Source: Candidatus Kapaibacterium sp. (GTDB lineage Bacteria; Bacteroidota; Ignavibacteria; Kapaibacteriales; UBA4661). Taken from it: DNA of 64,000 bases. Shown piece by piece: positions 10,575 through 63,584 of this stretch. The translations under genes and the position numbers were made by a program. The stretch's first letter is position 1. The number at the start of each line of letters is the position of its first letter. The notes beneath the pieces were generated by a model that did no database searches, had not been told where the DNA came from, and was given only the letters and a program-made list of their open reading frames with translations. The stretch covers positions 4,294-68,293 of the forward strand of contig JALONG010000017.1 of NCBI GenBank assembly GCA_025455065.1, in the 5' to 3' direction.

Positions 10575-10619
10575 GGAAATTGCCAAAAAAAATTGTGGAT
10601 CAAATTGACCAAAAGAACA

Positions 10620-41538: not shown

Positions 41539-41872
41539 TTTGCCGTGAGAAAAGTGTTTCGTGCAGAGATGTGTTGTTTATACACTCACGAAAATACAAG
41601 CCCTCACGCGCATCTCATAACTAAATTCAATGAGTGGTCGCAGGAATTGATGAACGGTTTTTGAGTGGAGTTTGGTGGTATGCAAAAGTTCATCATACAA
41701 CGTATCGTTCAATACAAAAGCCCTGCACACTTGATAAAAACTCGTGTACAGGGCTATTATTTTGTGGGGATATTCTTTACCTTCTTGAATTCAAGTGATA
41801 ATAATTCGGGAAAAATGGTAATTTACCTCTTTATCTATCGTATCGCCGCACGAAACATTGCTTTTTAACGCT

Positions 41873-43153
41873 ATGGAAGAACTATTCATCACCAAAATAG
41901 ACATCAAGAATGTTCGCCATTTGAAGGATATTACCATTCCGCTTTCCACCGAAACGCGGAAACACTTGATTTTGACAGGCAAGAATGGGAGCGGGAAAAC
42001 GTCGGTGTTGAATGCGTTGAACTTCCTACTTGATACAGGGGTTCGCTCTCAGCAGTTTAATCAATTGGATACTAAATTGAATAGCATCAAGAGCTATACC
42101 CACGCTATTGAGCAGTTTTCCTTAGAAATCGAACAAAACCCCGACAAAAAACAATCAATTTCAAATCGTGATAACGCCATTTATAGCCGCAAACAAGTTG
42201 AAAACAGTATTTTATGGTTTCATCAAATCCCTGTAGAATTTACCAACATAAACAAGATTGTATTGAGTTTTTTACATGGCGAGTTTATTATCGCCTCCTT
42301 TGCTGCAAAACGGAAGCCACAATTTGAAGCCTCAAACGGTGTCAATAAAGTGAATTTGCCCAATGTTTCAGGACTCCCGGAAGGTCTGAATAAACAACTA
42401 GTCAAGTATCTTGTGTATCTCCGTGCCGATGCCTCCTTCTTGCGCGATGAAGGTAAAGCTGAAGAAGCGCATCAAATCGAAGAATGGCTAGCTTCTTTTG
42501 AGCAATTACTCAAGAAAATTTTCAACGACGAAGGCTTAAAACTGGAATTTGACCGAAGCACGGCAAATTACACTTACAATATCCTCCAAACAGGGCGCGA
42601 AAAGGCAGATTTCAACACGCTTTCCGATGGATATTCTGCAATTCTGAGCATCGTTAGCGAACTTATTTTGCGGATGCAGCAAGCCCCCAAGCCTCTTCGT
42701 ACCTACGAAATGCAAGGAATTGTGCTGATTGACGAAATCGAAACGCATCTGCACTTAGAACTGCAAAAGCAGATATTTCCTTTCTTGACGACCGTTTTCC
42801 CAAAAATTCAGTTCATCGTTACGACACATTCGCCATTTGTGATTAGTTCGGTGGAAAATGCTGTGGTGTATGACCTCGAAACCCGCATCTGCACTGATGC
42901 GCTTTATGGTTCGTCTTACGAAGCGATTGCAGAGGCGTATTTCGATGTAAACAAGTATTCAAGTGAGATTCAAGAACGTTTGAAGGAATATGAAACTCTT
43001 GTTAAGAAAGACAGCAGAACACCTGCCGAAGCTGCACAGATGATAGCATTGGAGCAAGAATTTGAGTCTTTGCCCACATTCCGCTCTCCTGAATTATTCA
43101 GCACGCTCCGCAAACTTCGCAACCGTCCTGCCGCCAATGGTCAATCTCACTAA
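41873..43153 (+). CDS. ptuA: AAA15/21-type ABC-like ATPase, Septu PtuA-like
   Basis: Walker A GKNGSGKTS, signature-like LSDGYSAIL, Walker B VLIDEIETHLH and H-loop TTHSPFV. It overlaps the downstream HNH gene by 17 nt and is AT-richer than its neighbours. Confidence 0.6.
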   Translation: MEELFITKIDIKNVRHLKDITIPLSTETRKHLILTGKNGSGKTSVLNALNFLLDTGVRSQQFNQLDTKLNSIKSYTHAIEQFSLEIEQNPDKKQSISNRDNAIYSRKQVENSILWFHQIPVEFTNINKIVLSFLHGEFIIASFAAKRKPQFEASNGVNKVNLPNVSGLPEGLNKQLVKYLVYLRADASFLRDEGKAEEAHQIEEWLASFEQLLKKIFNDEGLKLEFDRSTANYTYNILQTGREKADFNTLSDGYSAILSIVSELILRMQQAPKPLRTYEMQGIVLIDEIETHLHLELQKQIFPFLTTVFPKIQFIVTTHSPFVISSVENAVVYDLETRICTDALYGSSYEAIAEAYFDVNKYSSEIQERLKEYETLVKKDSRTPAEAAQMIALEQEFESLPTFRSPELFSTLRKLRNRPAANGQSH

Positions 43154-43826
43154 ATCGCAACCCGCGCCGGATTGCTTGGTTGCGGAACAGGCAAAATCAA
43201 ACGGAAGCGTTCGGAACTGCCCCGAAGTGCGTGAACGCTTACGTGTGGACTTTTACGAAAAATGCTATCTCTGCGAACGACACGATATTCCCATGGAAAT
43301 TGAGCATTTTATCCCGCACAAAGGCGATAAAACCTTGGAGTTCGACTGGCTCAACCTTTTCCTTGCCTGCGGGCATTGCAACAGAGCCAAAGGAACGCAG
43401 CTTGACTTGCTCAACTGCACCAATCCTAGCGATGATGTTCTCCGCCAACTTGAATACCAATATTCTGCCGAGAATCTCTCGTCAAAAATCAGCATTGATG
43501 CGCTCAATGACGATGTTCGTGTGCGGAATACCGCACATTTGCTCACAACAATTTTTAACAGCACTTCGGGCGAAGGTAAGATGTACTCGCCCAAGTTGCG
43601 CTCTAAACTTGGAGAGGAAATCCAACGTCTCGAAACAACAATAGAATCTCTTCTCGCAAGGAAACAAGAGGGTTTCGAGACAAGTGATGATTACTTCGCC
43701 CTTCAACACCATTTATCAATTCAATCCCCTTTTTTCGCCTTTAAGTATTGGTTTCTTCGCCGCCACACCTTGTACAGCCTTGAGTTTCAAGACCTACTTG
43801 CTCAAGCACCACTGCCTGCTTTTTAA
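43137..43826 (+). CDS. ptuB: HNH endonuclease, Septu PtuB-like (TIGR02646-type)
   Basis: CYLCE...EIEHFIPHKGD...NLFLACGHCNRAKG is an HNH/beta-beta-alpha-Me motif. The ATG at 43137 lies inside the 3' end of the ATPase gene. Confidence 0.6.
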   Translation: MVNLTKSQPAPDCLVAEQAKSNGSVRNCPEVRERLRVDFYEKCYLCERHDIPMEIEHFIPHKGDKTLEFDWLNLFLACGHCNRAKGTQLDLLNCTNPSDDVLRQLEYQYSAENLSSKISIDALNDDVRVRNTAHLLTTIFNSTSGEGKMYSPKLRSKLGEEIQRLETTIESLLARKQEGFETSDDYFALQHHLSIQSPFFAFKYWFLRRHTLYSLEFQDLLAQAPLPAF

Positions 43827-45385
43827 TACCGCATCATCATTATCGCCGCAAAGGTTTCAAGACCATTCCAAAGATTTTGCAGGCGCAAGTTCTCATTTTC
43901 TGCGTGTTGGTTGTTATCGTGATTCGCAATCGGAACAGTAACAGTCGTGCTTTTGAGGTGTTTTTCAAAGAGGTAGAGCGGCAAACTTCCACCCAAAGAC
44001 GGCACAACAACGAGCGGCTCGGAGATAGTCGTCTGCACGGCAGCAATGACCGCCTTTGCAAGCGGGTGTGAAAGCGGGGTGCGTTGGGCGTTGTAGCCCG
44101 GAAACGTCCGTACTTTCGCAATGTTTGCGTGCTGCAAACGCTCTTCGTCGCTTGGTTCGCGGTCAATGACGTAGTAGCCTTGTTTTTGAATGTGGCGTTT
44201 GATTTTTTCACTTTGGCGTTGCCAATCATTCCCCAAAACCAGCCTCAAATCAAGCGCGGCTACTGCTTGCGTGGGGATCACATTGGCAGCCATTGCGCCC
44301 ACATTCGCAGCGCGAATGCCGTTCAGATTCAGCGACGGAAGGTTGAGCATTTCCAATAGCAATGCCCCTGCGCCGTCGGGTTTTGCAACGCCGAGTTCGC
44401 GTTTCATCTGCTCATCGGGGTGAGGAATAGCGCGGATTGCAGCACTTTCTTCGTCAGTAAACGGTACAACGTCGTCGTAAAAGCCTTCCACGAGAACACG
44501 CCCTGAAGAATCTTTCATCGAAGCAAGTAGCAAAACCAGCTTTTGTGCGGGATTCGGCACCCAATTCCCGTAATGTCCGCTATGCAAAGGACGCTTTGGA
44601 CCAAACACGGTAATTTCCATATTCACATCGCCCCGCACACCGCACACAACCTGCTTTCGTCCCGATTGATGCACAGGTCCGTCGCAGATAATCCAGCCGT
44701 CGGATTGCAGCACCGCTTTGTTTCGCTCCAAAATATCGCCCAAATTCGGCGACCCTGCTTCTTCCTCACCTTCAAAGAAAAATTTCAGATTCACGCTTGG
44801 CTGAATGCCGCTTTTGCGGAGTGCTTCATACGCATTCAAAATCGCAACAACACCGCCTTTGTCATCCGATGCAGAACGAGCATAGATGCGGTATTCGGGG
44901 TTTATTCGCATTGCGCTTTTTTCGTCGGGAAATCTAATAATTTCCCCACCTTTGTCCAAGGCACCCGACCGCAAGACAGGCGCGAAGGGCTTACCGTCAC
45001 GCGACCATTCAAGCGGGTTCACGGGCTGCCCGTCGTAGTGCGCATACAGGATAATGGTTTTAGTTGCACCTTTCGTTTTCACTTCCCCAAAGACCGCCGG
45101 AGGCGCATCGGGCTTTGTTCCACGAAGAAGTTGGACGTTTTCAATACCGCGTTTTTTCATCATTTCCACAACAAAATCTGCGTTTTGCACAATGTTTAGG
45201 CTATCACCGACAACATTTGGAAGCGCTAGAAAATTGCGGAACTCCCGCAACATGGCGTGTTCATTTGCCTCGCGGTAAGAGCGAACAGAAGTGAGGTTTT
45301 GTAAAGGTTTGATGGGTGGTAACTGAGTTTGCGCTTGGCTTTGCCCAAAAGCAAGAAAGAGGAATAGAAAGAAAAAATTTTGCAT
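43823..45385 (-). CDS. M20/M25/M40 family metallopeptidase, secreted
   Basis: YAHYDGQP, SDDKGG and EGEEEAGS metal-ligand blocks. Signal peptide present. Confidence 0.85.
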   Translation of the reverse strand: MQNFFFLFLFLAFGQSQAQTQLPPIKPLQNLTSVRSYREANEHAMLREFRNFLALPNVVGDSLNIVQNADFVVEMMKKRGIENVQLLRGTKPDAPPAVFGEVKTKGATKTIILYAHYDGQPVNPLEWSRDGKPFAPVLRSGALDKGGEIIRFPDEKSAMRINPEYRIYARSASDDKGGVVAILNAYEALRKSGIQPSVNLKFFFEGEEEAGSPNLGDILERNKAVLQSDGWIICDGPVHQSGRKQVVCGVRGDVNMEITVFGPKRPLHSGHYGNWVPNPAQKLVLLLASMKDSSGRVLVEGFYDDVVPFTDEESAAIRAIPHPDEQMKRELGVAKPDGAGALLLEMLNLPSLNLNGIRAANVGAMAANVIPTQAVAALDLRLVLGNDWQRQSEKIKRHIQKQGYYVIDREPSDEERLQHANIAKVRTFPGYNAQRTPLSHPLAKAVIAAVQTTISEPLVVVPSLGGSLPLYLFEKHLKSTTVTVPIANHDNNQHAENENLRLQNLWNGLETFAAIMMMRY

Positions 45386-45577
45386 ACATAGTCGTGAGAA
45401 TGTTGGCTAAATTTGGAAGTATCAAATTGCAATTTTCCCTTGAAATGACAATCAACCTTGAATTCAAGTTTAGGGCTATCGCATGAGAAAGGTAGCAAAA
45501 ACGGCAAAGAATACGGAAATTTGCCATTCTAACCAAGAGCTATATTGACCGTTTTTCTTACCTGTTTTTTGTGTGCA

Positions 45578-45688
45578 ATGACGATTGCCGAAGCCTTTGC
45601 ACCGCTCTAAGACCCGCTTCAAACAGGGAAAGTCGGGCATCACCTCATGGATATTCTCATGCTCACCCTCAGTAGGGCTATCGCATGA
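45578..45688 (+). pseudogene. ISAs1 / H-repeat family transposase N-terminal remnant
   Basis: Translation MTIAEAFAPL*DPLQTGKVGHHLMDILMLTLSRAIA* matches the family block ([25 protein letters not shown] in E. coli H-rpt proteins). There is an in-frame TAA at 45608 and the rest of the gene is missing. Confidence 0.45.
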
Positions 45689-46100
45689 ACATCCACAACC
45701 CGCATAAAACCTTGCGATTGCAACAAGGGGTTGCAACCTCTTGCTACACGGAATGAGTATTCAAGCCATTAAAAAAAATTCATGCGATTACCCTCGAAAG
45801 ATTCTCGGCTTCCGAACTCCAGCAGAGGTATTCTTTTCCAACACCTTACGACTTTCGCACTTGTAACTTGAATTCACGACTCTTTGCGTTGATAACCGGA
45901 CAACATGATGAAGCGAAAGTAAATAACTCAACACCTGTTGAACATTTATATATTCTGCTTTTTTCCACTGTGTATTTTGTTGTGAGTATGATATTTAGCT
46001 ATGTCTAGCCAGGACGCTTCAACAATGATCCTTTTGAAATGCTGATGAGAAAAATTTCGGGCTAATTGTTGAAAAAATTCTCCCTTGCACAAACACGTAA

Positions 46101-46427
46101 ACGCACCTTTTCACAAAAAAGCCCTAAAGCCAAGATTACATCTTGCCTTCAGGGTTTTTATTTTTTGAGGGCAGTTTGCGAAAAAATGCCGTCGAAGCAA
46201 GACGGAATCTGGATTTGAGGGTTGTCGAAGAATATTGCTCTTCAAGAACTACAAGCATACAACAACACTACTGCAAGGGTACGCTCCACGCACGCGACCA
46301 GATAGGCGTTCAACAAACATTTTCTCTTTTGACCAAATGAATATCAGAAAGGAGTGACAAGACAAAAACTACGACAACGACAATACGATAACTACGGCAA
46401 AACTTTCGTATATTTACGAGTTAGTGG
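46101..46427 (+). repeat. conserved leader module, long copy 1 (327 bp)
   Basis: Starts ACGCACCTTTTCACAAAAAAGCCC, then a 13-bp-stem hairpin, a T-run, GAGGGCAGTTTGCG ... TTTCGTATATTTACGAG. By eye it differs from 47579-47905 by about 20 substitutions and no indels. Confidence 0.85.
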
Positions 46428-46469
46428 CAAGTTTAACAGACATAGTAAACAGCAAAAGAACTTAAAAAA

Positions 46470-47426
46470 ATGAGACAAATGTTCCCTTTACTTTTTATAC
46501 TTCTTTTTTCGTGTCAAAATACACCAAAGAATAACAAAGTACTTGAAGCCGAAAAAATGAAAACTGACACTTCATACGTATGGACAAAACTATTGGATAG
46601 TGCCGAATGGAGAAAAAATTATAACTTCCAAATGTTCAGCCAAACAGATACAATTTGGACTTTTCACCCTGACGGAAATTGGTATTCAAAAGATGGTAAA
46701 GGTTGGATAAAATCAAACCTGCCCAACTCAATCTCTAACCTTGCATTCTTAGATTATGTACAATTTAAGGGAGCAGTTTATGGTCTTGGTTATTTCAAAG
46801 GGAATATTGAGCAGTTTGAGTTCAAGCCTGAGATTTACAAGACAACTGACTTTAACAAATGGGCAACTATTTCAAAAACAAGTAATCTACCAAAACGATT
46901 TTTCTATCACCCATTTGTTTTTGACAACAAAATTTGGATAATTGGTGGAGAAGACAAAAACACTAAGTTTTCAGACATTTGGAATTCATCAGATGGAATT
47001 GCTTGGACAAAACAAAAAGAAAACCTACCATTTGGCAAACGAAGTGGAAACCAGATAGTAACACTAAACAATAAGTTATACTCGCTTGACAATGATGTTT
47101 GGAGTTCAACGGACGGACTGAATTGGGAGAAAGTAACAGACGAGATAGTGAAGGGCGAGCAAATATTCGGTTATTCAGCACAAGTGTTTGACAACAAAAT
47201 TTGGTTACTTGGCTGTAACAGGAATGGACAGTTTTCAAGCCAAGTATTATTCAGTTCAGACGGAAAAAATTGGCATACACAAACAGCACCTTGGTTGCCT
47301 CGTGGTGGTATTGCAGCGACAGTACACAACAACAAGATTTATATGACAGGTGGTAAATATGGTGGAACACCTAATCATCCTGATTTCAGATACGACAATG
47401 ATGTATGGACACTTGAAAAAAAGTAA
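46470..47426 (+). CDS. Kelch-like beta-propeller lipoprotein (cassette cargo)
   Basis: Lipobox LLFSC. Repeated ...IW..GG... / SSDG.xW blades (SSDGIAW, STDGLNW, SSDGKNW). Markedly AT-rich. Confidence 0.65.
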   Translation: MRQMFPLLFILLFSCQNTPKNNKVLEAEKMKTDTSYVWTKLLDSAEWRKNYNFQMFSQTDTIWTFHPDGNWYSKDGKGWIKSNLPNSISNLAFLDYVQFKGAVYGLGYFKGNIEQFEFKPEIYKTTDFNKWATISKTSNLPKRFFYHPFVFDNKIWIIGGEDKNTKFSDIWNSSDGIAWTKQKENLPFGKRSGNQIVTLNNKLYSLDNDVWSSTDGLNWEKVTDEIVKGEQIFGYSAQVFDNKIWLLGCNRNGQFSSQVLFSSDGKNWHTQTAPWLPRGGIAATVHNNKIYMTGGKYGGTPNHPDFRYDNDVWTLEKK

Positions 47427-47466
47427 GAAATGAAAAGCCAGCCACTAATATCGTATTGGCAATAGT

Positions 47467-47578
47467 GGGGCTGACAGTTGTGAACTCAGCATTTGTACTT
47501 CTGTCGGGCATTTGTGCAAATGTTGGACTGACGTTTTTCAAATGCCCAACCATCGCCAAGCAGCAAACCGTTAGCCCC
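47467..47578 (+). other. attC-like imperfect palindrome (site A)
   Basis: Outer stem GGGGCTGAC / GTTAGCCCC (one G-T pair), inner perfect stem GGGCATTTG / CAAATGCCC, and an asymmetric internal loop. It ends in CCGTTAGCC directly before the leader module. Confidence 0.5.
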
Positions 47579-47905
47579 ACGCACCTTTTCACAAAAAAGC
47601 CCTGAAGCCAAGACTACATCTTGCCTTCAGGGTTTTTACTTTTTGAGGGCAGTTTGCGAAAAAACACCGTCGAAGCAAGATGGAATCTGGATTTGAGGGT
47701 TGTCGAAGTATATTGCTCTTCAAGAACTGCAAGCATACAACAACACTACGGCAAGGGTACGCTCTACGCAAGCGACCAGATAGGCGTTCCACAAACGTTT
47801 TCTCTTTTGACCAAATGAATAGCAGAAAGGAGCGACAAGACAAAAACTACGACAATGACAATATGACAACTACGACAAAACTTTCGTATATTTGCGAGTT
47901 GGCGG
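47579..47905 (+). repeat. conserved leader module, long copy 2 (327 bp)
   Basis: See copy 1. It contains TATATTTG (TAnnTTTG-type -7 box) about 90 nt upstream of the ImmA/IrrE-like gene. Confidence 0.85.
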
Positions 47906-47988
47906 TCATGCTAAAAAACCGACAGCTACCGACAAAACATTAGTATTTTGACAAAACCGACCTTAAAATTTATATTTTTGAAACCTAA

Positions 47989-49167
47989 ATGGCAGACAAA
48001 GCATTCATAACACCAAATGTTCTGAAATGGGCAAGAGAATCGGCAAGAATGACCGAAGAAACTGCTGCTGCCAAAGTTTCTGTGACGGTTGACAAACTTA
48101 AGGAATGGGAAGAAGGAACAAGTCAGCCAACAATCAGACAAGCACAAATCTTAGCTAAAGCATATAAAAGACCTTTTGCTTTGTTCTTTTTGCCAGAAGT
48201 TCCTCGAGACTTTCAGCCACTCCAAGACTTTAGAAAGTCTGGTTCAAAAACTCTGACAACATCTTCAATTTTTATCATCAGAGAAATCCAACAAAAACAA
48301 GCATGGATTAGTGATATATATTCAGAAAACCAAGAAGACAAATTAGCTTTTGTAGGTCGTTTTTCAATAAAAGACAATCCTCAAACCGTAGCAAAAGACA
48401 TTCTTGAAACATTAAAAATTAATCCTGCATCTTACAAGACAGACAACCCCATCAAAGAATGGATTGATGCAGCAGAAACAAATGGCATTTTCGTATCAAG
48501 AACAAGTTTCATTCATTCTCGTCTAAAGCTTGATTCCGAAGAGTTACAAGGCTTTGCTATTGCAGACCTTCACGCTCCTTTTGTGTTCGTTAATTCTGAA
48601 GACTGGAACGCACCACAACTTTTCACACTTGTCCATGAGCTAGCACCTATTTGGATAGCTGAAACAGGTATTTCAAATGAAGTTGAACCTGAAATAAAAC
48701 CTAAAGACAAGTTTCATCCGGTGGAATTATTCTGCAATGAAATTGCAGCAAATGCTTTAATGCCAAAAGAGATTGTTTTAAGTTTTGACACTGCATCTTT
48801 TCAAAATTCTAAAGATGTTTTTAAAGTTGCGAAGCAATTAGGAGTAAGCTCATTTGCTCTCTTGGTTCGAGCATTGAATCTTAATATTATTTCTGCTCCA
48901 GTTTATCAAAAACTTAAAAAGCAAGCTGACATCAATTATGCTGAGTATTTGAAAAAAGAAGCAGAAAAAAAAGCCAAACAAAAAGAAAAGGATAAACCAG
49001 GCGGACCGAATTACTTTTTACTGCAACTAAACAGAAACAGTAGACTTTTTACCCAAACGGTTTTAGATGCATTTCGTGGTGGCTTTATAGAGCCGACAAT
49101 GGCTAGTAATCTTTTAAATGTTCAAGTAAATAAATTTCCAAAACTCGAATCACAATTATTTAGATGA
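47989..49167 (+). CDS. XRE-HTH + ImmA/IrrE (COG2856) metallopeptidase-domain protein with degenerate active site
   Basis: N-terminal HTH (LKWARESARMTEETAAAKVSVTVDKLKEWEEG). In the peptidase core, the expected HEXXH reads HELAP (48634-48648; CCT where CAT is expected). The stop overlaps the next start (ATGA). Confidence 0.7.
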   Translation: MADKAFITPNVLKWARESARMTEETAAAKVSVTVDKLKEWEEGTSQPTIRQAQILAKAYKRPFALFFLPEVPRDFQPLQDFRKSGSKTLTTSSIFIIREIQQKQAWISDIYSENQEDKLAFVGRFSIKDNPQTVAKDILETLKINPASYKTDNPIKEWIDAAETNGIFVSRTSFIHSRLKLDSEELQGFAIADLHAPFVFVNSEDWNAPQLFTLVHELAPIWIAETGISNEVEPEIKPKDKFHPVELFCNEIAANALMPKEIVLSFDTASFQNSKDVFKVAKQLGVSSFALLVRALNLNIISAPVYQKLKKQADINYAEYLKKEAEKKAKQKEKDKPGGPNYFLLQLNRNSRLFTQTVLDAFRGGFIEPTMASNLLNVQVNKFPKLESQLFR

Positions 49168-49670
49168 TCACAAAGGCAAACAAATATTGTTTGGATGCCA
49201 ATGTGTTAATCCAGGCATGGCAAAAATACTACAACCCAAAATTTTGTCCTGATTATTGGAAAATCTTAACCGAACTCGGAAAAAACGGAAAGATTTTTAT
49301 TCCTGAATTGGTTTATGAAGAAATTGTTCGGACAGAAGACGACCTCTCAAAATAGTTAAAAGCGAGTAAAATCCCAATCAATAAAATTAGCGAACCTGTT
49401 ACTCTCTGCTTACAAAAAATATATGCAGCAGACCCAGCACACAAAAACTTGGTTGACAACACAAAAGCCCGTTCATTAGCTGACCCATGGGTGATTGCTC
49501 ACGCTTTACATGAAAATGCGACTGTTGTAACCAAAGAAGAAAAAGTAACAGCATTAAACTCAAACAAGATAAAAATACCCAACGTTTGCGACAACATGGG
49601 GATTAGATGGATTAACGACTTCCAATTCATTGACGAGTTAGACATTAAATTCCAATGTTCCTTGACCTAA
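49164..49670 (+). pseudogene. DUF4411 (PIN-like) protein gene interrupted by an in-frame TAG
   Basis: ORFs 49164..49355 and 49449..49670 are in the same frame. The single stop TAG at 49353-49355 lies in ...EDDLSK*LKASK..., where a Trp (TGG) is plausible. The C-terminal half has ADPWVIAHA...IKIPNVC, typical of DUF4411. Confidence 0.6.
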
Positions 49671-49696
49671 CCGATGACAGAAAAGAAGCACGAACC

Positions 49697-49824
49697 GCCA
49701 ACACGGGTTTTGCGTCAGGCGGGGCTACTTGCAAATTTGGAGCTTTGTGCTTCTATTCAAGTTCAGTGCTGGTTGACAGTTTTGTGATCCGAAATCCGCC
49801 CCCGCCAAACCCGAAAACGTTAGC
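49697..49824 (+). other. attC-like imperfect palindrome (site B)
   Basis: CGCCAAC-A-CGGGTTTTG...GGCGGGG on the left pairs with CCCCGCC-CAAACCCG-AAAAC-GTTAGCC on the right. It follows the DUF4411 stop by 27 nt and precedes leader copy 3. Confidence 0.5.
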
Positions 49825-49827
49825 CTC

Positions 49828-49953
49828 ACGCACCTTTGCACAAAAAAGCCCTGAAGCCAAGACTACACCTTGCCTTCAGGGTTTTTATTTTTTGAGGGCA
49901 GTTTGCGGAGAAATGCCGTTGAAGCAAGACAAAATCTGGCGTTGAGGTCGGTT
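49828..49953 (+). repeat. conserved leader module, truncated copy 3
   Basis: ACGCACCTTTGCACAAAAAAGCCCTGAAGCCAAGACTACACCTTGCCTTCAGGGTTTTTATTTTTTGAGGGCAGTTTGCGGAG... Similarity stops about 20 nt before the CPBP gene stop. Confidence 0.8.
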
Positions 49954-49974
49954 GAAGTGTTTTTTTATGGTGGC

Positions 49975-50700
49975 TTACTGTTCAAATCGCCGTTCTGCTG
50001 CCAATATCGCTCCCCAGACAAGCATCCATACACAACCATTCACCAGCATAAACCGTGCATCCGGCAACGCCGCTTTCATCACAAAATACCCGCAATTCAA
50101 TACAACATGAAACAGCGCTGCAAGAATGACATTATACCGCAAAGAACCAAGTACATACGCCATTATACCCGATGCACCTGTTGAAAAGAGCAGAAAATAC
50201 GCCACATAGAGAACGCCATTTTGGAAATTCCCGACGTGCCACAATCCCCACAGCGCACCCACCACCAAGACAGCAATCATGCGGCTTTTGCGGTCTTCAA
50301 GCACACGCTGCAAATACCCGCGCCAGCCAATTTCCTCGCCAAACGCACCCAAGAACATTCCTGCCAGAATAAGCGGAATTTCACTGAACAGGGGAAACCG
50401 CGCCGGAAGTGGCTCGACCAGAAGATTATACGCCCAAAATATCGCAAACAATGCCGCGCTTGGAAGGAGAATCACGAGAAAATACCGTCTGAACGAAACA
50501 CCCGAAAGTGAGAATTGAAGCGGGAATCGGTCTTTCTTGAAGAAAATGAGCATAAGCGCGGCGGCTATCCCCGGACCAAGTTGCGGTAAAATTACCGTTT
50601 CCGGCGTGGTGAAGCCGCTTTCTTGCTGCACTCCGGCAATAAGAATAGTGAAAAACAGTGCCATTATGTAGTACAGTCCGATACGAAGCCAAAGATTCAT
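49975..50700 (-). CDS. CPBP family intramembrane glutamic endopeptidase (CAAX protease-like)
   Basis: EEIGWRGYL motif 1 and FHVVLN motif in a multi-TM protein. ATG at 50700. Confidence 0.8.
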   Translation of the reverse strand: MNLWLRIGLYYIMALFFTILIAGVQQESGFTTPETVILPQLGPGIAAALMLIFFKKDRFPLQFSLSGVSFRRYFLVILLPSAALFAIFWAYNLLVEPLPARFPLFSEIPLILAGMFLGAFGEEIGWRGYLQRVLEDRKSRMIAVLVVGALWGLWHVGNFQNGVLYVAYFLLFSTGASGIMAYVLGSLRYNVILAALFHVVLNCGYFVMKAALPDARFMLVNGCVWMLVWGAILAAERRFEQ

Positions 50701-50815
50701 AGAATTACAGAATATTGTGAGAAAGAAAACCCCACAGAAGCAAGGTTTTATCTGGATTACCAGCCGAATACTTTTGTCCAATACGTCCAAAGAAACCAAA
50801 AAGTTACAAAGGATT

Positions 50816-52078
50816 CTACTCATCGTGCGGCAACGTTTTCAAATGCGAATAATTCCCCCGCGTCCGCGCTAATACTTGTTGTAAGCGGGTAAAATTCTCT
50901 GGAGTTGGCTTGAGATTCACAAATTTTTCCACGATTGTGCGGTGCTTAAAAATGACAATCGTATTTTCCGCTTCGGGGTTAATGGTATTCAAATGCACAT
51001 CGCTTTCTCTGTCGGCAAAGGACGGCACAAAGGTTAGCGCAAGCCGCGTCAAACCGAGTGCGTTACCAAGCGTTTCAAGTTCTTTTCTGCGCCCTTCTGC
51101 GGTGTATCCTGCTGCATTGCCATAGATGTAATAGACTTTGAGTTCGTTGCCGCGCCGTATGCTTTCAGCTTCAAAAAACCGCAGCCATTGTTTGATTTCA
51201 TCCCAATTTGGACGATTCCCAACAAAATACTCAATACCGTGAAAACGCCCATATCTACACACCGGGCAAGCTCTCGTGCCTTTGTCCGCACCCCACGCAT
51301 GAAACGGAATAAACGACGGACAGTCTTCACCAATGGACAAGCCTGATTGCACAGGTGAGGTATTCTCGGAACGAGTTGCTATGCGACGTGGGGAGGTACG
51401 CCGCTCCACAGGATAGTTCGGAATGTTCAACCCCAATATAATGTCATGTTCGGCAATTTGTGTGCCGTTATTTACCAAAACCCTCAAAACCTCAGTTCCG
51501 GCGCGGTTTTGCTGACCATATTTTTTTCGGTGTGCCAAATACAACTTGTCATCGTCAAAGTACAAATCTGCGTAATACTCAATGATATTCGGCTCTTTTA
51601 TGGAGAGGTGAATATGCGCGGGTATCCCTGCATTGGGGTATGGTGCAGGTCGAAGCGTTTTTAAGACGTAATTCCCACTCACATCAGTTTTCACCCAGCC
51701 CCGCAAATGCCCGTGTTTCCTAGCGTTTGGCGGTGTACTGCTATTCGGCGAATACAAGCCTTTGGTGTCTGTATGCCAATAATACACAATCACATTCGGC
51801 GCGGGTGTTCTGCCGTCACGTTGAAATACCGTCCCTGTCAGCAACAGTTTTTGCCCTTGTTCAGACCATCCGGGGCTTATACTTTCGGAAGAGATTGACT
51901 GAGGGATGCCGATATACATCAATTCGCAACCATCGCAGCCGCCACCGATGAGGGTACTGGCTTTTTGCGCATTAACGGGTGCGAAAAACAGCATTGTCAA
52001 AAAGCAAAGAACGAGCATTTGTACCGAAAAACCCAGATTATTTTGGGGCGTGGTTTGGCGGTTATGTAGGTGTGCCAT
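50816..52078 (-). CDS. secreted intradiol-dioxygenase-like domain fused to a CxxC (thioredoxin-like?) C-terminal domain
   Basis: The N-terminal half has GTVFQRDGRTPAPNVIVYYWHTDTKGLY...GIPAHIHLSI (intradiol dioxygenase-like fold). The C-terminal half carries CPVC and an alpha/beta pattern. The start is uncertain (52078 or 52018). Confidence 0.55.
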   Translation of the reverse strand: MAHLHNRQTTPQNNLGFSVQMLVLCFLTMLFFAPVNAQKASTLIGGGCDGCELMYIGIPQSISSESISPGWSEQGQKLLLTGTVFQRDGRTPAPNVIVYYWHTDTKGLYSPNSSTPPNARKHGHLRGWVKTDVSGNYVLKTLRPAPYPNAGIPAHIHLSIKEPNIIEYYADLYFDDDKLYLAHRKKYGQQNRAGTEVLRVLVNNGTQIAEHDIILGLNIPNYPVERRTSPRRIATRSENTSPVQSGLSIGEDCPSFIPFHAWGADKGTRACPVCRYGRFHGIEYFVGNRPNWDEIKQWLRFFEAESIRRGNELKVYYIYGNAAGYTAEGRRKELETLGNALGLTRLALTFVPSFADRESDVHLNTINPEAENTIVIFKHRTIVEKFVNLKPTPENFTRLQQVLARTRGNYSHLKTLPHDE

Positions 52079-52208
52079 TGCAATTCGTGAAAATGGTAAA
52101 AAAAAACTTTTTACCAAAATATCGTTACGAATGGCTTCAATGCAAGTTCTTTAGGCTATCCTGTGGAAAGATTATGCTAAGATGAGGAGTTTGTGTTATG
52201 GTGATGTG

Positions 52209-53147
52209 TCATGGTGATGTGTCATGCTGAGGATGAACAAACCGCTCAAATTTCTCCTTAAACTCCTTCGCATAATTTCTGCTGAGGCGAACTTCCTGCC
52301 CATTGGTGAGCAGAATATCATAATCACCGTTCAAACGCGAGGTGCTTGAAATCACCTGCTCAAGGTTGATAATGGTTGATTTGTGAATCCGAACAAACTG
52401 CTCTTGCGGCAAGATTTCATGTACTGCTTTGAGCGTTTCGGCATGGAGAAATTCTTTCGTTTTGGTTTGAATCGTGATGTAGGGCGCGGAAGAAGTGATA
52501 CAGAGGATGTCGGTAAGCGGTACAGAAACGCGATGTTTGCTTGTGCCGACAAGAATATGCCGAACGTGTGGCGAAATAACTTGAGGAGAAATAACTTGGG
52601 ATTGTTGTGAACCTGCCCCGAACAAGGTCTGGGTTAGGCTTTCCGAATGTTGGTTTATCGCTTCCCTGTTGCTGTTTTCGTGTTTGTTCTGCAAAACCTT
52701 TTTCCATGCGGCTTCACGGCGAAAGGCAATCACGCCAAAACCTCCATACACAACGACATACATGAGAAAATCACTCGTAAATGTGTAGGTCAAATTTCCG
52801 ATAAAGGAGTACGTGTGGTCAAAGAACATCGCCGAAACGGCAAACACTGCACTAGCGAACATCACCGCATGAATCGGTATTGTCAGGCTCAAAAAGAGCA
52901 AGAGTTTCACCAACGAATGAAAGTGAAAATGGTCGTGAGCAAAGAGCTTCTTCACAATCCATAACCCGCCAAAGGCAACGGGAACAACAAATATCCAGAA
53001 GACCTTGAACAGAAGAGATTCAGAGAAATAAAACGCATACTCATTTCGCAGAGACTGAAAATAATCTTGCAAAATCCCAAGAGCAATAATGCCCAAAACT
53101 GACAACACCACCAATAATGCGGTGCGGAGGCGCTTCTCATTTCTCAT
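52209..53147 (-). CDS. membrane-anchored LytTR DNA-binding domain protein
   Basis: Four or five TM segments, then a C-terminal LytTR domain (FVRIHKSTIINLEQV). The start is uncertain (53147-53228). Confidence 0.7.
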   Translation of the reverse strand: MRNEKRLRTALLVVLSVLGIIALGILQDYFQSLRNEYAFYFSESLLFKVFWIFVVPVAFGGLWIVKKLFAHDHFHFHSLVKLLLFLSLTIPIHAVMFASAVFAVSAMFFDHTYSFIGNLTYTFTSDFLMYVVVYGGFGVIAFRREAAWKKVLQNKHENSNREAINQHSESLTQTLFGAGSQQSQVISPQVISPHVRHILVGTSKHRVSVPLTDILCITSSAPYITIQTKTKEFLHAETLKAVHEILPQEQFVRIHKSTIINLEQVISSTSRLNGDYDILLTNGQEVRLSRNYAKEFKEKFERFVHPQHDTSP

Positions 53148-53610
53148 GGTCAATGGTATTGGCTGTATCATGACGTAGATAAAATTCATTGTTTGAAAAC
53201 TCAAGCAAATATAAAAATTGGTACGCACAATCCTACATACAATAGATAGACAACCTATTCGTTTTGAACACAGCGAACATCAGGTAATTATGTATCCGGC
53301 AGAATACTTTTTTCGTATTGTTGCTCACCTTTTGCAAAAATTTGCAACAAATATGTTGCAATGTACAAACGAGCAATACTGGCTAAGGAATGAGAAATAA
53401 ATAACAGCGCGTTTTAAGATGCAATTCTTCAGAGTGGAACACTTATTTGAAAAGCAAGGTTTGATGAGCCACAGAGGACACAGAAGTCGCCGAGAACGAA
53501 TTACGCTTTTATTTCAATCACGTTCCTAATGTGTGTGTTCAGGTTCGACGTTGTTCTCCCCAACGAAAAATTTACCGTCCTCTTTTTTTTAACCCCATCT
53601 CCATTCTTCA

Positions 53611-56600
53611 ATGAAGCATCTTGCCTTTTTGCGGATTCTGCTTATTGCAATTATGGTAGTGTTCTGCGGTTTTGAGCAATCTCTTCTTGCCCAAAGCGCG
53701 GTCACTCCACAACAAGCATCAGAACCCGCTTACACGCTCTATTTTCCCGGCAAACGTCAGCCGGACGGCACATTTTCCCCTGCCCGTTTTTACCCGATTT
53801 ATCGAACCCCGAAAGGAACGTATTTGGAAAACAGGCTCTATGTCAAAATGCGTCAGTATGTTCCCATCGGGAAAAATGGTGCAAGTTTGCAGTCTTCCGC
53901 AGTGATGAACATTTTGCAACGTTATGGTGTTCGCGCTATTGCTCCTGCGATTCCAAAACTCAACGGAAATCTCCAATCCTACGACCCCGAAGGCTTAGGT
54001 AATGTCTATTCGGTACGCTTGGAAGGAAATGCCGATGTCTATGACGTTTGCAAAGAATTAGTGCAGTCGCCAGATGTAGAATACGCAGAACCGGTGTATT
54101 TGATGCAACTTCACAACGATTCCACTGCTCGCCGTTTTACGCCGAATGACCCGCTGTTCAGCCGACAGTATGAGTGGCAACGTATAGACGCAGAGCGGGC
54201 TTGGGGCGTTACGACAGGTTCGGCATCGGTTGTTATCGGGATTATTGATTCCGGCGTGGATTATGAGCATGAAGATTTAGCGTCAAAAATTTGGACAAAC
54301 CCCGGTGAAAGCGGCAGAGACGCTAACGGCAGAGATAAACGCACCAATGGCATTGATGACGACAACAACGGAAGAATTGATGATTTTCGCGGGTGGGATT
54401 TTGCAAACACCTTGAATCTTCAAGAAGCGAATGGCGGAGTGTACCGCGATGATAACGACCCTAAATTGCGCCGTACACTTGGTCGCAATTTAGGTGTTAC
54501 CGACGGAACGTCGAATCACGGCACACACGTTGCCGGTGCTTCTGCGGCGGCGACAAATAACGGTCTCGGCGTTGCCGGTGCCTGCCCCGAATGTTTGATA
54601 CTTCCCATAAAAATCATGTCAGAAGACTCTCTGTTGAACGGTTTACTACGCAGCGCAGAGGCAATGCGCTACGCGGCAGATATGGGCGCAAGTGTTGTTA
54701 ATATGAGCTTTGGCTCGCGTGGATTAGCACCATTCGCAAACTTTTCCGCATTTACGCAAGGCGTTCTCACCCAAGGCACAGCCGCCGGAACGCTCTACGT
54801 CTCGTCTGCAGGTAATGATGGTTCACTTCAGGATGATTTTAATTACCCTGCTTCTTACGATAATGTGTTTTCTGTGGGCAATTCAAATGTGAACGACGTA
54901 CCTGTGGCATCATCGAATTTTGGCATCAAAACAGGCGTTTTCGCTCCCGGAAACCAGACTTCAAGCACGTTCAGCGACAATCAATACCAATTCCTTAATG
55001 GTACGTCTATGGCTTCGCCGATTGTTGCCGGAGTTGCAGGTTTGCTGCGTTCACAACGCCCGACCTGGACACCGCGCCAAATCATGCACCAGATTCGCAG
55101 CACCTCAGACAACGCCATTTTGCAGGGCTTGGCACTTTCCGCACGCAATCCTTTTTACTACGGGCGCTTGAATGCCTTCCGCGCTTTGACTTTCAACAAC
55201 CCGCTTAATGAAGGTCCGAACGTTGTTCCCGGTATTAGCAACGTTGGCTTTACCGTTAGCGCTGAGAATGGCTTGATTACAGGCTTTCAGCCGGTACGGT
55301 TGCTTATTGCCGCACAAAATTTCTTGTCCAACGCCAACGATGTGAGCATCACGATTACCTCCCTCGACGGACGCGCACTGCCTGTTGGTACAAGCACGGT
55401 AAATGTTGGTAACATCAACACAATGCAGCAACGCATTGCGGAATTTCTTGTACAATTGCAACCATCGGCAGCATTAGGTGCGGGCTTGCGACGTGCTGAT
55501 TTCCAAATCACCTATCGCAGTGGTTCATACATCAACTATGAGCGTATTTCTCTCGCCTACAACACCCCTACAACGGTTGATACGCCTGAACTTACGGCAC
55601 CGACTTCCACAGATTTTGGTATTGCTCAAGTGCCTGTAACTCGCACCATTACTATTCGGAATAATGGTAATGTACCGATTACTCTCAATACAACAGCAAC
55701 AGTTTTTTCCGGTGCAAATGCATCAGAGTTTACCTTTTTTCCGACTCCAACAAGTTTGTCCATTCCCCCAACCGGATTTCAAACTTTAACAGTTCGTTTT
55801 GTCCCCAATACCAATGCTACCGGTCAAGGCAACCGCACAGCAACGCTAACCATTTCGGCGAGAACCGTGACAACCGACATCGTTACAACACTTCAACGCA
55901 CGGTACAGCTAACAGGTGTTTCGCGCTTTGTCGGCTCATTAACCGTTACACCCGCAGCAGGATTGGCGTTTGGAACTGTTACTATTGGAACAACACAAAT
56001 TTTAACGGCAACTTTTGCTAATACAAGCCCACTTCCTGTAACGATTCGTTCTGTGAACGTCGTAACGGGAACGACCGTAACATCCGGTGAATACAGGCTT
56101 CTCGACCAATTACCCAATGTCATTGCGCAGCGCACTTCGGCAACACTTCGTGTACAATTCACACCAAGCGCTACAACCGGTACTCGTCCTGCTTTTTTGA
56201 TTATTGAGACTGATTCCGACCCGATTCGCATTGCGCTCAATGGTGGTGGATTTATTGGTTCTCCGCCGCGTCAGCCGCGCGTTTTGAGTTATGGTTTTGT
56301 CGGACAGGCAGATTTTGTCGGCGGTTCCAATATCTTTAGCCGATTTGACCAACAGCCGCTCGGTACTATCAATCCTCCGCGTATCGGCGAGATTCGCATT
56401 GCCAATGATATTCAAGTTCGTAATCGCGGTACGCAAGCCGTTACCGTAACAGGTGCTTCCTTTAGCGGTGTAGGAGCGCAAGAGTTCACAATGACCGGAC
56501 CAATATTTCCCTTCACCTTGCAGCCCAATCAATCAACAACGCTGACCGTGCGCTATGCACCAACGGTTGTTGGTGAAAAATTTACAAGCGTTACGTTTTT

Positions 56601-59279: not shown

Positions 59280-59571
59280 ATGCTTGAACTTACGCATCAA
59301 GAAAGCTCATTGAGCTGTTGATTATGCTTTTCAGCGAATAGGCGGAAAGTATAAAGGGCGAATTTTATGGGTGCTAAGAAATGGTTGCCTTCGGTATGGA
59401 GAATTACATAGAGCCATTGTTGGTATTACGCCGAAAATGCTCTCCCAAACGCTGAAAGAATTGGAAGTTGATGAGCTGATGACAAGAAAAGTTTATGTAG
59501 AAGTTCCACCAAAGGTTGAATACTCACTGACCGAAACAGCAAAAGAATTAATTCCATTTATCAGCCAAATA
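59280..59571 (+). pseudogene. HxlR-family transcriptional regulator, frameshifted and 3'-disrupted
   Basis: ATG at 59280 gives MLELTHQESSLSC* in one frame. The family continues in another frame as AVDYAFQRIGGKYKGRILWVLRNGCLRYGELHRAI...PPKVEYSLTETAKELIPFISQI. The reading frame then runs into the 134-bp inverted-repeat element. Confidence 0.55.
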
Positions 59572-59705: not shown

Positions 59706-59844
59706 GACAAATGAGAAATTGGGGATAACAGCAAATGTCAGAAAACAAAGAATTGAGTTCTTAGGGTGTTTTGATGTGCTTGCCACGAACTCAGAGATTG
59801 ACGAAAGTTTTGTCGTGAGTTTCGGATTGTTAGTGTTTTTCGTT

Positions 59845-59916
59845 CTTGTTTCAAAAATCAAAAGCCCTGCATTACAAAATTCTAACTTGCCATACAGGGT
59901 TTTTTGTGCAAAGGTG
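59845..59916 (-). repeat. conserved hairpin module, short copy 6
   Basis: Minus strand CACCTTTGCACAAAAAACCCTGTATGGCAAG...TGTAATGCAGGGCTTTTGATTTTTGA, immediately after the sigma-factor stop. It probably acts as that gene's terminator. Confidence 0.7.
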
Positions 59917-59917
59917 T

Positions 59918-60784
59918 TTACAACGCAAACATATTGCGAATGACCTCGCTTTGCAAAACCTGTTCAACAAGACTTTTTACCTGTTCCGATTCTTGGAAAG
60001 GATGATGTTGGTATATTTGCTCATACAATTCATCAATCTTCTCACAATCATCATCAGCATTTTCCTCAATCATCTGGTAAATACGTCGCGTGTAGTGTGC
60101 ATTAAATCGTAGTGTTTCAGGATGAACCCAGCCCGCTTGAATAAAACCTTTCGTCTTTTTACTACATCGGCACGGGTTTGTCGTATTGACTAAACCGCAA
60201 CGTTTGTTCATCCATTCATGTAAATCACGACGTGCACGAGATAATTTTTGGCGAAAATTCTCTGGGCTGATATTCAGAATTTCACCGCCAAGTTTTGAAT
60301 CAATTTCAAAAATTGCGCCAAGAATATAGACTAACCGTTGTTCGCGGTCGAGACAAAGCAACATCCCTGCGGTACAAGAAATTTTTACATCATCAATTGT
60401 GTCTTTCAATTCCTGCTCTTCTAATGTCGTAAGAGCAATTGTGGGGAGATTATCCAGACCCTCAAAATACTCTGAAAAATCAACAACGACTTCTTCCATG
60501 CGTTGTTTTTTCATTGCCAGAATGTGATTGAAGGCTATGCGATAGAGCCACGTACGAAATGCGCTCCGTCCTTCAAATTGCGCCAGATTCGTGATAGCCT
60601 TGATAAACACCTCTTGAGTAACATCTTCTGCGTCTTGCGGATTCAGCACCATTTTCCAAGCAACATTGTAAATGAATGCTTGATGACGCAAAATAAGATG
60701 TTGCAAAGCCTCCTTTGTTCCTTCCAAGGAGGCTTGTACCAATTCGCTATCACTCATATCGGCGAAAAAACCTTGAGTTGTCAT
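59918..60784 (-). CDS. ECF-type sigma-70 family factor with Cys-rich C-terminal extension
   Basis: Region 2 (DAEDVTQEVFIKAI...FRTWLYRIAFN), region 4 (ISPENFRQKLSRARRDL), then CGLVNTTNPCRCSKK and an extension of about 80 aa. Confidence 0.8.
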   Translation of the reverse strand: MTTQGFFADMSDSELVQASLEGTKEALQHLILRHQAFIYNVAWKMVLNPQDAEDVTQEVFIKAITNLAQFEGRSAFRTWLYRIAFNHILAMKKQRMEEVVVDFSEYFEGLDNLPTIALTTLEEQELKDTIDDVKISCTAGMLLCLDREQRLVYILGAIFEIDSKLGGEILNISPENFRQKLSRARRDLHEWMNKRCGLVNTTNPCRCSKKTKGFIQAGWVHPETLRFNAHYTRRIYQMIEENADDDCEKIDELYEQIYQHHPFQESEQVKSLVEQVLQSEVIRNMFAL

Positions 60785-61477: not shown

Positions 61478-61597
61478 ACATCTTCCTCAAGAATAGTGAA
61501 ACAGTGTGTTTATGCTATTTTGATTCAGAAAGTGAGCGTGTGTGACAAAACAATAAAAAAATTGTAACTGCTGCACAAAATAGGCAGGATATACGAA

Positions 61598-61721
61598 ATC
61601 CTCTCAAAACCGCACTACACCTTCGCTCCACGCCATTTTTCCGCAAACTGCCCTTGAAAATCGAAAACCCTGCACGCAAGATGTAATCTGGCATACAGGG
61701 CTTTTTTGTGCAAAGGTGCGT
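61598..61721 (-). repeat. conserved leader module, short copy 4
   Basis: Minus strand ACGCACCTTTGCACAAAAAAGCCCTGTATGCCAG-ATTACAT-CTTGCGTGCAGGGTTTTCGATTTTCAAGGGCAGTTTGCGG...TTTCGTATATCC. It is preceded by CGTTAGCC (61736-61729). Confidence 0.8.
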
Positions 61722-61790
61722 AGGGGGAGGCTAACGAAAATAGAAGCATTTCAGCCACCATATTGCCAAACTTTTTGCCTACGTTTTTTA

Positions 61791-63150: not shown

Positions 63151-63350
63151 CAACGTCAAAAATGAAGGGATGCGGGGTGTAGTTATTTGATGAAGGATGC
63201 AATCTACGAAATTCGCCTCGAAGCGAAGAAAAAGAAACACCGTTACAAGCCCCAGCAAATACCCCACCTCACAAACACCTGCCACGAATACCGCACCAAT
63301 ACTGGCTCTGGGAGCGCAGTTAATTTTCCTTCAAAATTAAGATTGATATA

Positions 63351-63473
63351 CAGCCCTCAAGTCCAGATTCCACCTTCACTCCAAGCCATTTTCCCGAAAC
63401 TGCCCTCGAAATTGGAAAACCCTGCACGCAAGATATAATCTGGCATACAGGGCTTTTTTGTGCAAAGGTGCGT
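63351..63473 (-). repeat. conserved leader module, short copy 5
   Basis: Minus strand ACGCACCTTTGCACAAAAAAGCCCTGTATGCCAG-ATTATAT-CTTGCGTGCAGGGTTTTCC...GAGGGCAGTTTCGGG...GGAATCTGGACTTGAGGGCTG. Confidence 0.8.
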
Positions 63474-63479
63474 GGGGGA

Positions 63480-63574
63480 AGCTAACGGTTTCGGGCTTGG
63501 CGAAGATGGCGATTTTCACCACAAATGTGTCTGCGGAGAACGGAACCACCACTTTTGCCAAACCCGTGTTATAG
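63480..63574 (-). other. attC-like imperfect palindrome (site D)
   Basis: Minus strand CTATAAC-A-CGGGTTTGGC ... GCCAAGCCCG-AAACC-GTTAGCT. It starts 10 nt after the stop of ORF 63585..63995. Its arms are nearly identical to site B. Confidence 0.5.
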
Positions 63575-63584
63575 GCAGCTTTTT

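Follow-up and report, generated by a model that had tools for sequence, protein, structure and literature searches.

We analyzed a 64-kb window (the whole stretch of 64,000 nucleotides from contig JALONG010000017.1 of Candidatus Kapaibacterium sp.), which is part of an Ignavibacteria/Kapabacteria-like chromosome of the Fibrobacteres–Chlorobi–Bacteroidetes (FCB) group and in which accessory genes form two mutually inverted clusters, at 46.1-49.96 kb on the plus strand and from 59.8 kb to beyond 64 kb on the minus strand. With a probability of about 0.8, as judged from the DNA and its relatives, these arrays consist of integron-type gene cassettes recombined at a G|TT exchange point, with no recombinase gene in the window; the cluster is probably a non-canonical Bacteroidota/Ignavibacteria variant of an integron-style system. 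A first-pass annotation had proposed attC-like sites that close gene cassettes in an integron-style cluster, and this proposal is supported by G|TT boundaries, circular permutation, cassette turnover and a deleted IntI-like recombinase gene located beside the ImmA cassette of contig L035. The following cassettes were delimited:

46421..47570, plus strand: cassette 1, a Kelch-repeat lipoprotein gene (46470-47426; Pfam Kelch) and an attC-like site; it starts with TTAGTGGCAAG right after G46420
47899..49819, plus strand: cassette 2, an ImmA/IrrE-helix-turn-helix (HTH) gene (47989-49167), a DUF4411/PIN-like gene (49164-49670; Pfam) and an attC-like site
minus strand, running off the window: a cassette with Hypoth_Ymh/PD-Lambda-3_B-like and 152-aa genes, closed by the palindrome at 63480..63578 (D, see below)

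The boundaries of cassette 2 were mapped on its relatives. At E≤1e-30, 2137 relatives of the 392-aa ImmA/IrrE protein were found; the best 120 are 86-95% identical and include metagenome-assembled genomes (MAGs) named Kapaibacterium, Flavobacteriales, Bacteroidales, Cytophagaceae and Cyclobacteriaceae, and many lie on contigs of 1.85-1.95 kb, which is the size of the cassette. When window positions 47571-49970 were compared by blastn with 13 contigs carrying ImmA cassette relatives, the alignments were limited to exactly 47898-49703 in ten contigs and to 47897-49822 in L035, the latter running from G|TT to G|TT across the whole of palindrome B. The unit 47899-49819 was found at 84-88% DNA identity in at least eight other contexts, all of them bounded by G|TT. 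Further, the neighbours of copies encoding an identical ImmA protein differed, with at least four of them on the left and at least five on the right, the junctions being invariably ..CCG|TTGGCGATC.. and ..TTGACCG|TT... These comparative, rather than experimental, data place the crossover at G|TT, on either side of which the neighbours change. Cassette 2 also carries its own predicted promoter (47948-47976), and its DUF4411/PIN-like gene contains a TGG->TAG nonsense codon at 49353-49355; every other copy examined has an intact gene of 165 aa, so the ImmA partner is probably inactivated in this genome. In some of the related arrays (L026 2782-5866, L028/L029), the unit directly 5' of the ImmA cassette is a diversity-generating retroelement comprising bAvd, a reverse transcriptase, a 418-nt template-like region and a Fib_succ/Big_7 target gene.

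The two ends of a cassette were also found to be related to each other. In eight of ten cassettes, the start that follows G|TT is the reverse complement of the 5' end of the cassette's own palindrome. Own pairs matched at 52 of 70 variable positions, compared to 2.9 of 7 for non-own pairs, and none of 100,000 permutations over the ten cassettes reached the own-pair score. Among the ImmA copies, a compensatory change (GGT/ACC -> GAT/ATC) was observed. Complementarity of this kind is predicted by recombination within the GTT of a circular intermediate, and neither by homologous recombination nor by a miniature inverted-repeat transposable element (MITE). The pairs were as follows:

ImmA cassette, window: start GTTGGCGGT, own palindrome 5' end ACCGCCAAC
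ImmA cassette, biogas copies (compensatory change): start GTTGGCGAT, own palindrome 5' end ATCGCCAAC
Kelch cassette, window: start GTTAGTGGC, own palindrome 5' end GCCACTAA(T), at 47441-47448
L038 cassette: start GTTAGGTGCC, own palindrome 5' end GGCACCTAAC
GmrSD cassette: start GTTAATGGC, own palindrome 5' end GCCATTAAC
L027 cassette: start GTTACCTGCT, own palindrome 5' end AGCAGGTAAC

Turnover of the cassettes was seen in a close relative. Contig L006 (VYMD01000480.1) is 97-98% identical to window positions 44530-46165 and 49818-54610 and, between the same outer repeats, it carries an AraC + serine-hydrolase/TPR module and an AbiP2-type reverse-transcriptase cassette. The latter closes with a palindrome of the same family as those in the window (GCCTAAC...CCG|TTAGCC), and homology to the window picks up again at CGTTAGCC. 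Separately, L006 holds a 130-nt MITE-like insertion at 833-965 that is absent from the window (~45355-45362); its terminal inverted repeats read GTAACTGGTCAGGTC / GACCTGACTAGTTAC, and 8 bp are duplicated (GAAAGAGG).

When related sites from other contigs were included in the alignment, the palindromes A, B and D proved to form one homologous family of ~100-135 nt. In the window they measure 99-136 nt, occur only at the 3' ends of genes, begin 15-25 nt past a stop codon and run from ...AAC (or AAT) to GTTAGCY, with the layout ...AAC-A-CGGGTTTKGC ... GCCAARCCCG-AAAMC-GTTAGCY in B and D. A family profile run against the 64 kb with nhmmer retrieved three full copies only, each on the strand of its adjoining genes, with E values of 1.8e-29 (A), 6.8e-36 (B) and 1.5e-18 (D). 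Together with an internally deleted fourth copy, they are:

47441..47576, plus strand: palindrome A, attC-like, re-delimited by family alignment and nhmmer; GCCACTAAT ... AAACCG|TTAGCC
49694..49825, plus strand: palindrome B, attC-like, from alignment and nhmmer; ACCGCCAAC-A-CGGGTTTTGCG ... CGCCAAACCCG-AAAAC-G|TTAGCC, its 5' end complementary to the cassette start GTTGGCGGT
63480..63578, minus strand: palindrome D, attC-like, from alignment and nhmmer; CTGCCTATAAC-A-CGGGTTTGGC ... GCCAAGCCCG-AAACC-G|TTAGCT, with the G at 63486
61729..61770, minus strand: palindrome 4, a remnant with an internal deletion; TTTGGCAATATGGTGGCTGAA ... TTTTCG|TTAGCC, with the G at 61735

Sites B (49694-49825) and D (63578->63480, minus strand) had been described correctly in the first-pass annotation, and its degenerate fourth site proved to be the internally deleted family copy (61770->61729, minus strand). 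Site A is a real palindrome with a different 5' limit: it begins at 47441 with GCCACTAAT, which shares homology with the corresponding ends of B (ACCGCCAAC) and D (CTGCCTATAAC), while GGGGCTGAC at 47467, where the site had been thought to start, is an internal motif conserved across the family. A and B are 2.2 kb apart, and D and remnant 4 are 1.75 kb apart. Provided that these sites count as attC, the window holds at least two attC close together with no intI nearby. The expected alternative pattern, repetitive extragenic palindromic (REP) or MITE copies scattered over the genome, was not seen: all three copies lie in accessory arrays, with none in the other ~46 kb, and in the other contigs examined the family again occurred only within co-oriented arrays. 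The region is AT-richer, as had been noted, with a GC content of 0.36-0.41 at 46-50 kb vs. 0.43-0.53 in the surroundings.

Several observations weigh against the assignment to integron-type cassettes. The single-strand DNA fold energies of the palindromes were no better than those of shuffled sequences (z -1.4, -0.2 and -1.9), and RNAalifold returned no consensus structure for seven palindromes, whose alignment was too gapped. A check of bottom-strand folds and extrahelical bases, made by eye on a small sample, revealed no conserved extrahelical bases and neither strand folding consistently better; in the same sample, the stems differed through mismatches and not through single-base bulges. 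The spacing of the boxes is atypical, with 1-3 nt after R'' on the 5' side vs. 5-7 nt before R' on the 3' side. Rfam scans, at both gathering and permissive thresholds, gave nothing relevant at the palindromes, and neither the window nor the ~5 kb of contig checked outside it contained a recombinase; the contig, which corresponds to JGI 3300037462 Ga0392395_0000401, has a length of 68.9 kb and continues for 589 nt past the right end of the window. Two of the ten cassettes (the L006 reverse-transcriptase cassette and the L035 PemK cassette) lack start/end complementarity, and three modules (AraC+VOC and ABM+sigma in the window, AraC+hydrolase in L006) lack clean G|TT ends; these modules may have entered by recombination in the repeat units described below, or may be decayed cassettes. 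Finally, those repeat units do not behave as normal cassettes, given that no attC-like palindrome or GGGCTAAC partner was found at their 3' end, and in related genomes their core also occurs singly, outside cassettes, behind ordinary genes and in either orientation. The 12-mer AAAMCGTTAGCY was found in three places in the 64 kb, the same as originally reported, a count that is not significant by itself (3 seen vs. 1.6 expected with one mismatch allowed). As neither the fold energies nor this count was significant, the case rests on homology and comparative evidence. A home-made attC scan for AAC/GTT boxes plus a stem was dropped because shuffled sequence was equally noisy (~95 matches).

The repeat units (hereafter U) had been missed in the first-pass annotation. 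A repeat starts directly after every GTTAGCY, and its six copies all lie at 46-64 kb. The core consists, in this order, of ACGCACCTTTKCAC-A6, a 14-bp hairpin, a T-run and GAGGGCAGTTTGCGGAAAAATG..., and the U copies are 84-94% identical among themselves. In the plus-strand array, the repeat extends to ~320 nt without an open reading frame (ORF; 46101-46400 and 47579-47878 are 94% identical), precedes each cassette and is bounded by G|TT; its 3' end carries a promoter-like ATGACA-18-TATATT located 6 nt before ...GCGAG|TT. The copies are:

46101..46420, plus strand: U1, core with a predicted bidirectional terminator hairpin (46121-46154) and a leader ending ...TATATTTACGAG; nhmmer E 1.2e-43; with neither a palindrome nor GTTAGC in front, it forms the left edge of the array
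47571..47898, plus strand: U2, 328 nt, ORF-less, with G|TT on both sides; TTAGCCCC ... GCGAG; terminator hairpin at 47599-47632, direct repeats AACTACGACAA x2, promoter-like ATGACA-18-TATATT at 47863-47892
49820..49959, plus strand: terminal core copy without a long leader, abutting a convergent CAAX-protease gene; right edge of the array; the segment is 97.9% conserved with L006 from 49818 on
63195..63485, minus strand: U5, core and diverged leader
61480..61734, minus strand: U4, core and leader
59778..59918, minus strand: degenerate last unit, with a partial core (59918->59851) and a leader end ...CTCTGAG|TTCGTGGCAAGC, G at 59790; inner edge of the minus-strand array

Having a G|TT at each of its limits, U2 takes up a cassette slot. 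We read U as a lineage-specific, ORF-less unit, putatively insulating and promoting, that has spread through the array. The idea that U represents a decayed integrase 3' end plus attI was rejected, as its alignment to L035 was carried solely by the shared cassette start and blastx detected no recombinase remnant in the window. Of 185,579 species representatives, a single one, an Ignavibacteria MAG, had exact matches to the core, as did a few metagenome contigs. The dispersed copies of the ~130-nt core (terminator hairpin + GAGGGCAGTTTGCG...), whose position behind ordinary genes in either orientation indicates that it is not confined to cassette arrays, are located at:

L015: 6147-6273 and 11899-12006
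L001: 2999-3122, adjoining a 226-aa ORF, on a contig that also holds a CAAX homologue (58% identical)
L002: 3772-3878 and 5054-5171

In L002, a different imperfect palindrome (ATACCGTTT...GAAACGGTAT) stands in front of the core.

With regard to the enzyme, the statement that no integrase is in view holds: Pfam searches of the ORFs at 40-64 kb detected no tyrosine recombinase, and 120 IntI-like fragments compared with the whole window by blastx gave only E>0.3. Related arrays were more informative. In L035, L036 and L041, the ImmA cassette, or a contig break, lies directly 3' of a recombinase gene on the same strand, with the junction TAA-N21-AACAAG|TTGGCGG. The L035 gene is internally deleted, fusing 24 N-terminal residues to the last ~112, and its best family match is the integron integrase TIGR02249 (1.4e-28). 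Fuller relatives of this recombinase (the P0333/L035 family, 2361 clusters at E≤1e-30) are ~580 aa long and comprise a ~300-aa N-terminal extension with three DUF5710-like repeats, a SAM-like domain, a catalytic domain and an IntI-like C-terminal ..SPLD tail. They align end to end with archaeal (Pyrococcus) XerA (4a8e) and in two pieces only with VchIntIA (2a3v), with ~40 residues missing at the place of the IntI-specific insertion.

We also fetched 80 viral-collection loci with a profile of the ~580-aa family. Most of them contained generic Xer-like genes and no arrays; two (L088 and L085, both from IMG/VR) hold palindromes of the window's family. In L088 (IMGVR_UViG_3300043411_001575, 170 kb), the array at 1-10700 consists of eight co-oriented genes, six of which encode N6/N4 DNA methyltransferases, with a PAPS-reductase-like gene among the others; a palindrome in inverted orientation follows each of five genes, and a 298-aa XerA-like tyrosine recombinase lies at the end of the array. 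The L088 array may represent phage-borne cassettes of methylases that counter restriction. In L085, two palindromes are significant, and further similar sites were recognized by eye. In both loci, the array abuts a XerA-like recombinase gene (269-298 aa) without the insertion; this gene is oriented divergently with respect to the array, an arrangement also found in classical integrons, and the array genes lie antisense relative to the attC orientation. A search of viral contigs with P0333 as a single protein gave no match, and a palindrome-like 20-mer between two recombinase genes of L043 was discarded as not significant by nhmmer.

The recombinases near related arrays have integron integrase (TIGR02249) or XerA/integron integrase (NF040815) as their best families. 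The L035 remnant, its relative P0278 and the L088 and L085 recombinases all lack ~40 residues at the IntI-specific insertion, and none of them reaches the curated cut-offs for integron integrase. An integron in the strict sense, with an IntI bearing the additional domain beside attI and an array, was found neither in the window nor in the related arrays. Based on this absence of ~40 residues beside three related arrays, and on adjacency in three lineages, the linked enzyme class appears to be IntI-related and non-canonical.

In the mechanism that we propose, a cassette would be a circularly permutable unit that starts with the TT just after a G, contains one or two co-oriented accessory genes and ends in an attC-like imperfect palindrome of ~100-135 nt, whose final base would be the G of the next G|TT. 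An integron-integrase-related tyrosine recombinase, presumably encoded elsewhere in the genome, would exchange strands within GTT, so that the cassette could be excised as a circle and re-inserted at another GTT site, probably as a single-stranded hairpin substrate. The circular junctions expected are ...CCCGAAAACG|TTGGCGGTCATGC for cassette 2 and ...GCAAACCG|TTAGTGGCAAG for cassette 1. The ~320-nt ORF-less unit that alternates with the cassette slots would act as a bidirectional terminator and then as a promoter, and we propose that each cassette is in this manner insulated from its neighbour and expressed on its own.

Alternatively, structured repeats of the REP/MITE type or plain 3' hairpins could account for the palindromes, with turnover resulting from homologous recombination between the 130-330-nt U repeats. 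The U copies, 84-94% identical, do flank each module, and their core is dispersed outside arrays in related genomes; moreover, the first module of L006 starts inside the core, past the terminator and not at G|TT, and a Logan assembly breaks exactly in cores. However, the ImmA cassette changes context without any U, and its G|TT limits are base-exact; homologous recombination would not be expected to produce start/end complementarity with compensatory changes; the palindrome family does not occur in the other 46 kb of the window; and no target-site duplications were seen, so that we regard this explanation as improbable. Slightly less probable still is a tandem accretion of integrase-less integrative elements, akin to cis-mobilizable elements (CIMEs) or tycheposons, at the core as an attachment site, with the core being duplicated each time. 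This would account for the n+1 cores found for n modules, and the core adjoins the CAAX-protease gene in the window and a 226-aa ORF in the Ignavibacteria MAG contig with the 58%-identical CAAX homologue, a placement that suggests an old, fixed site. By contrast, those module limits that could be mapped lie at G|TT, outside the core; cores occur singly and in either orientation as ordinary terminators; and the arrays hold no integrase remnants.

Given recombination of integron-type cassettes at G|TT, the nature of the system has to be considered. The arrays may belong to a canonical, strict-sense integron whose classical IntI, insertion included, is encoded elsewhere, the insertion-less recombinases being bystanders. 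Complete integrons with canonical IntI have been reported in Ignavibacteriae and Chlorobi (PMC9024848), and the sites do have R''/R' boxes and a G|TT crossover. Nevertheless, we consider this less likely than not, as the recombinase abutting each of three independent related arrays lacks ~40 residues at the IntI insertion, the sites show no evident extrahelical bases, which that insertion would read, and no canonical IntI was seen in any fetched locus. MacDonald et al. reportedly described in 2006 that the IntI insertion contacts extrahelical bases. A more novel reading, to which we give somewhat less than even odds, is a distinct integron-like system, widespread in Bacteroidota, Ignavibacteria and some of their phages, in which insertion-less IntI/XerA-related recombinases would act at the G|TT of attC-like hairpins that lack extrahelical bases, and in which mobile terminator-promoter units would allow every cassette to be transcribed independently.

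Integrons have been reported in Ignavibacteriae, Chlorobi and one Salinibacter, and are deemed rare in Bacteroidetes (PMC9024848); the IntI-specific domain is held to be essential for attC recombination (PMC9024848, PMC8138268). The arrays resemble integrons in their cassettes of one or two co-oriented genes, which terminate in an imperfect palindrome bearing ...AAC and GTT... boxes, in the G|TT exchange point with a cassette start complementary to its own inverse core, in sites that are homologous within the lineage, like the Vibrio cholerae repeats, and in a defence/toxin-rich cargo that differs between near-identical strains. They differ in their strongly asymmetric box spacers (1-3 nt vs. 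5-7 nt) and non-evident extrahelical bases, in an end complementarity that reaches 9-16 nt, in the alternation of cassettes with a ~320-nt ORF-less repeat, and in recombinases beside related arrays that lack the IntI-specific insertion. Integron cassette cargo is known to be defence-rich (bioRxiv 10.1101/2024.07.02.601686), and the defence/toxin-like genes of the window and related arrays (AbiP2, a PD-Lambda-3-like protein, GmrSD, PemK and ImmA/PIN-like) fit this content. 

As to other known systems, U is similar to gene-less promoter cassettes (PMC6557892; PMC11014356) in being ORF-less, in occupying a G|TT-bounded slot and in having a promoter-like end facing the next cassette, whereas it has no palindrome of its own, is repeated before each cassette with the bidirectional terminator first, and has a core that belongs to a dispersed repeat also present outside arrays. 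The array-side recombinases align end to end with XerA, like the archaeal XerA or 'integron-like' simple tyrosine recombinases (PMC8138268), but one array-side family (~580 aa) has the ~300-aa N-terminal extension with DUF5710-like repeats. Phage integrons and attC sites (PMC9892861) are comparable to the L088 contig from IMG/VR, a palindrome-bearing gene array ending at a tyrosine recombinase; L088, which is putatively viral, differs in having a XerA-like recombinase and genes that run antisense to the canonical attC orientation. The ~130-nt palindromes do not fit Xer/dif modules (plasmid dif, pdif, and integrative mobile elements exploiting Xer, IMEX), which have 28-bp, double-stranded sites with two 11-bp arms and a 6-bp spacer.

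If such a distinct system exists, it would stand in its design as a sister or precursor of classical integrons, and current integron finders would largely miss it. One cassette of the window is common to several Bacteroidota orders, with ~90% protein identity and base-exact G|TT ends, and this wide sharing points to a large, active exchange network in a phylum where such exchange has barely been described. If the insertion-less recombinases are the enzymes, both the origin of integron recombination from Xer-like ancestors and strand choice without extrahelical bases would become testable. The arrangement of the terminator-promoter units further suggests a way in which the silencing of cassettes far from a platform promoter may be solved. 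No description of a Bacteroidota system of this type was found in the literature searched, which does not prove that none exists.

The remaining modules of the minus-strand array are:

AraC (63150->62386) and VOC/glyoxalase (62180->61791), minus strand: module downstream of U5
ABM-monooxygenase (61477->60791) and sigma-70 (60784->59918), minus strand: module downstream of U4

Concerning the typical cassette cargo postulated in the first-pass annotation, the Kelch lipoprotein and ImmA/DUF4411 genes do lie in cassettes, and the AraC+VOC pair has no clean cassette ends. The cargo proteins have close relatives that are named Candidatus Kapaibacterium. At the inner edge of the array lies a truncated HxlR-family regulator gene (59371-59646, plus strand; 91 aa, N-terminus missing); full HxlR genes (114-118 aa) adjoin DUF2306/DUF4386/DUF6326 genes in related genomes. 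The genes between the arrays are conserved and include a CAAX protease (49975-50823, minus strand, convergent with the plus-strand array), a dioxygenase, LytTR and a 1591-aa S8 peptidase with a type IX secretion system (T9SS) tail, among others. An exact-protein look-up of the 282-aa CAAX ORF returned no match.

To the left of the plus-strand array, ~700 nt of non-coding DNA (45386-46100) between the M20 peptidase gene and the first repeat unit are 97% conserved in L006, with repeated GGGCTATCGCATGA motifs at 45474 and 45675 and an inverted one near 45781. Further upstream, a Septu-type defence pair (41858-43826, plus strand) lies between histidine-kinase and M20 peptidase genes and consists of PtuA, an AAA_15 ATPase (PADLOC, 1.2e-113), and PtuB, an HNH nuclease (2.4e-47); the pair also adjoins M20 in the 62%-related genome L017. 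A weak match to the U core near this pair (41699-41769) was rejected as merely a similar, core-like terminator hairpin. The only Rfam match above gathering score in the window is a cobalamin riboswitch at 30053-30304 on the minus strand (RF00174, 74.3 bits, E 1.9e-16), and a very large ORF of 2889 aa occupies 15931-24600, also on the minus strand.

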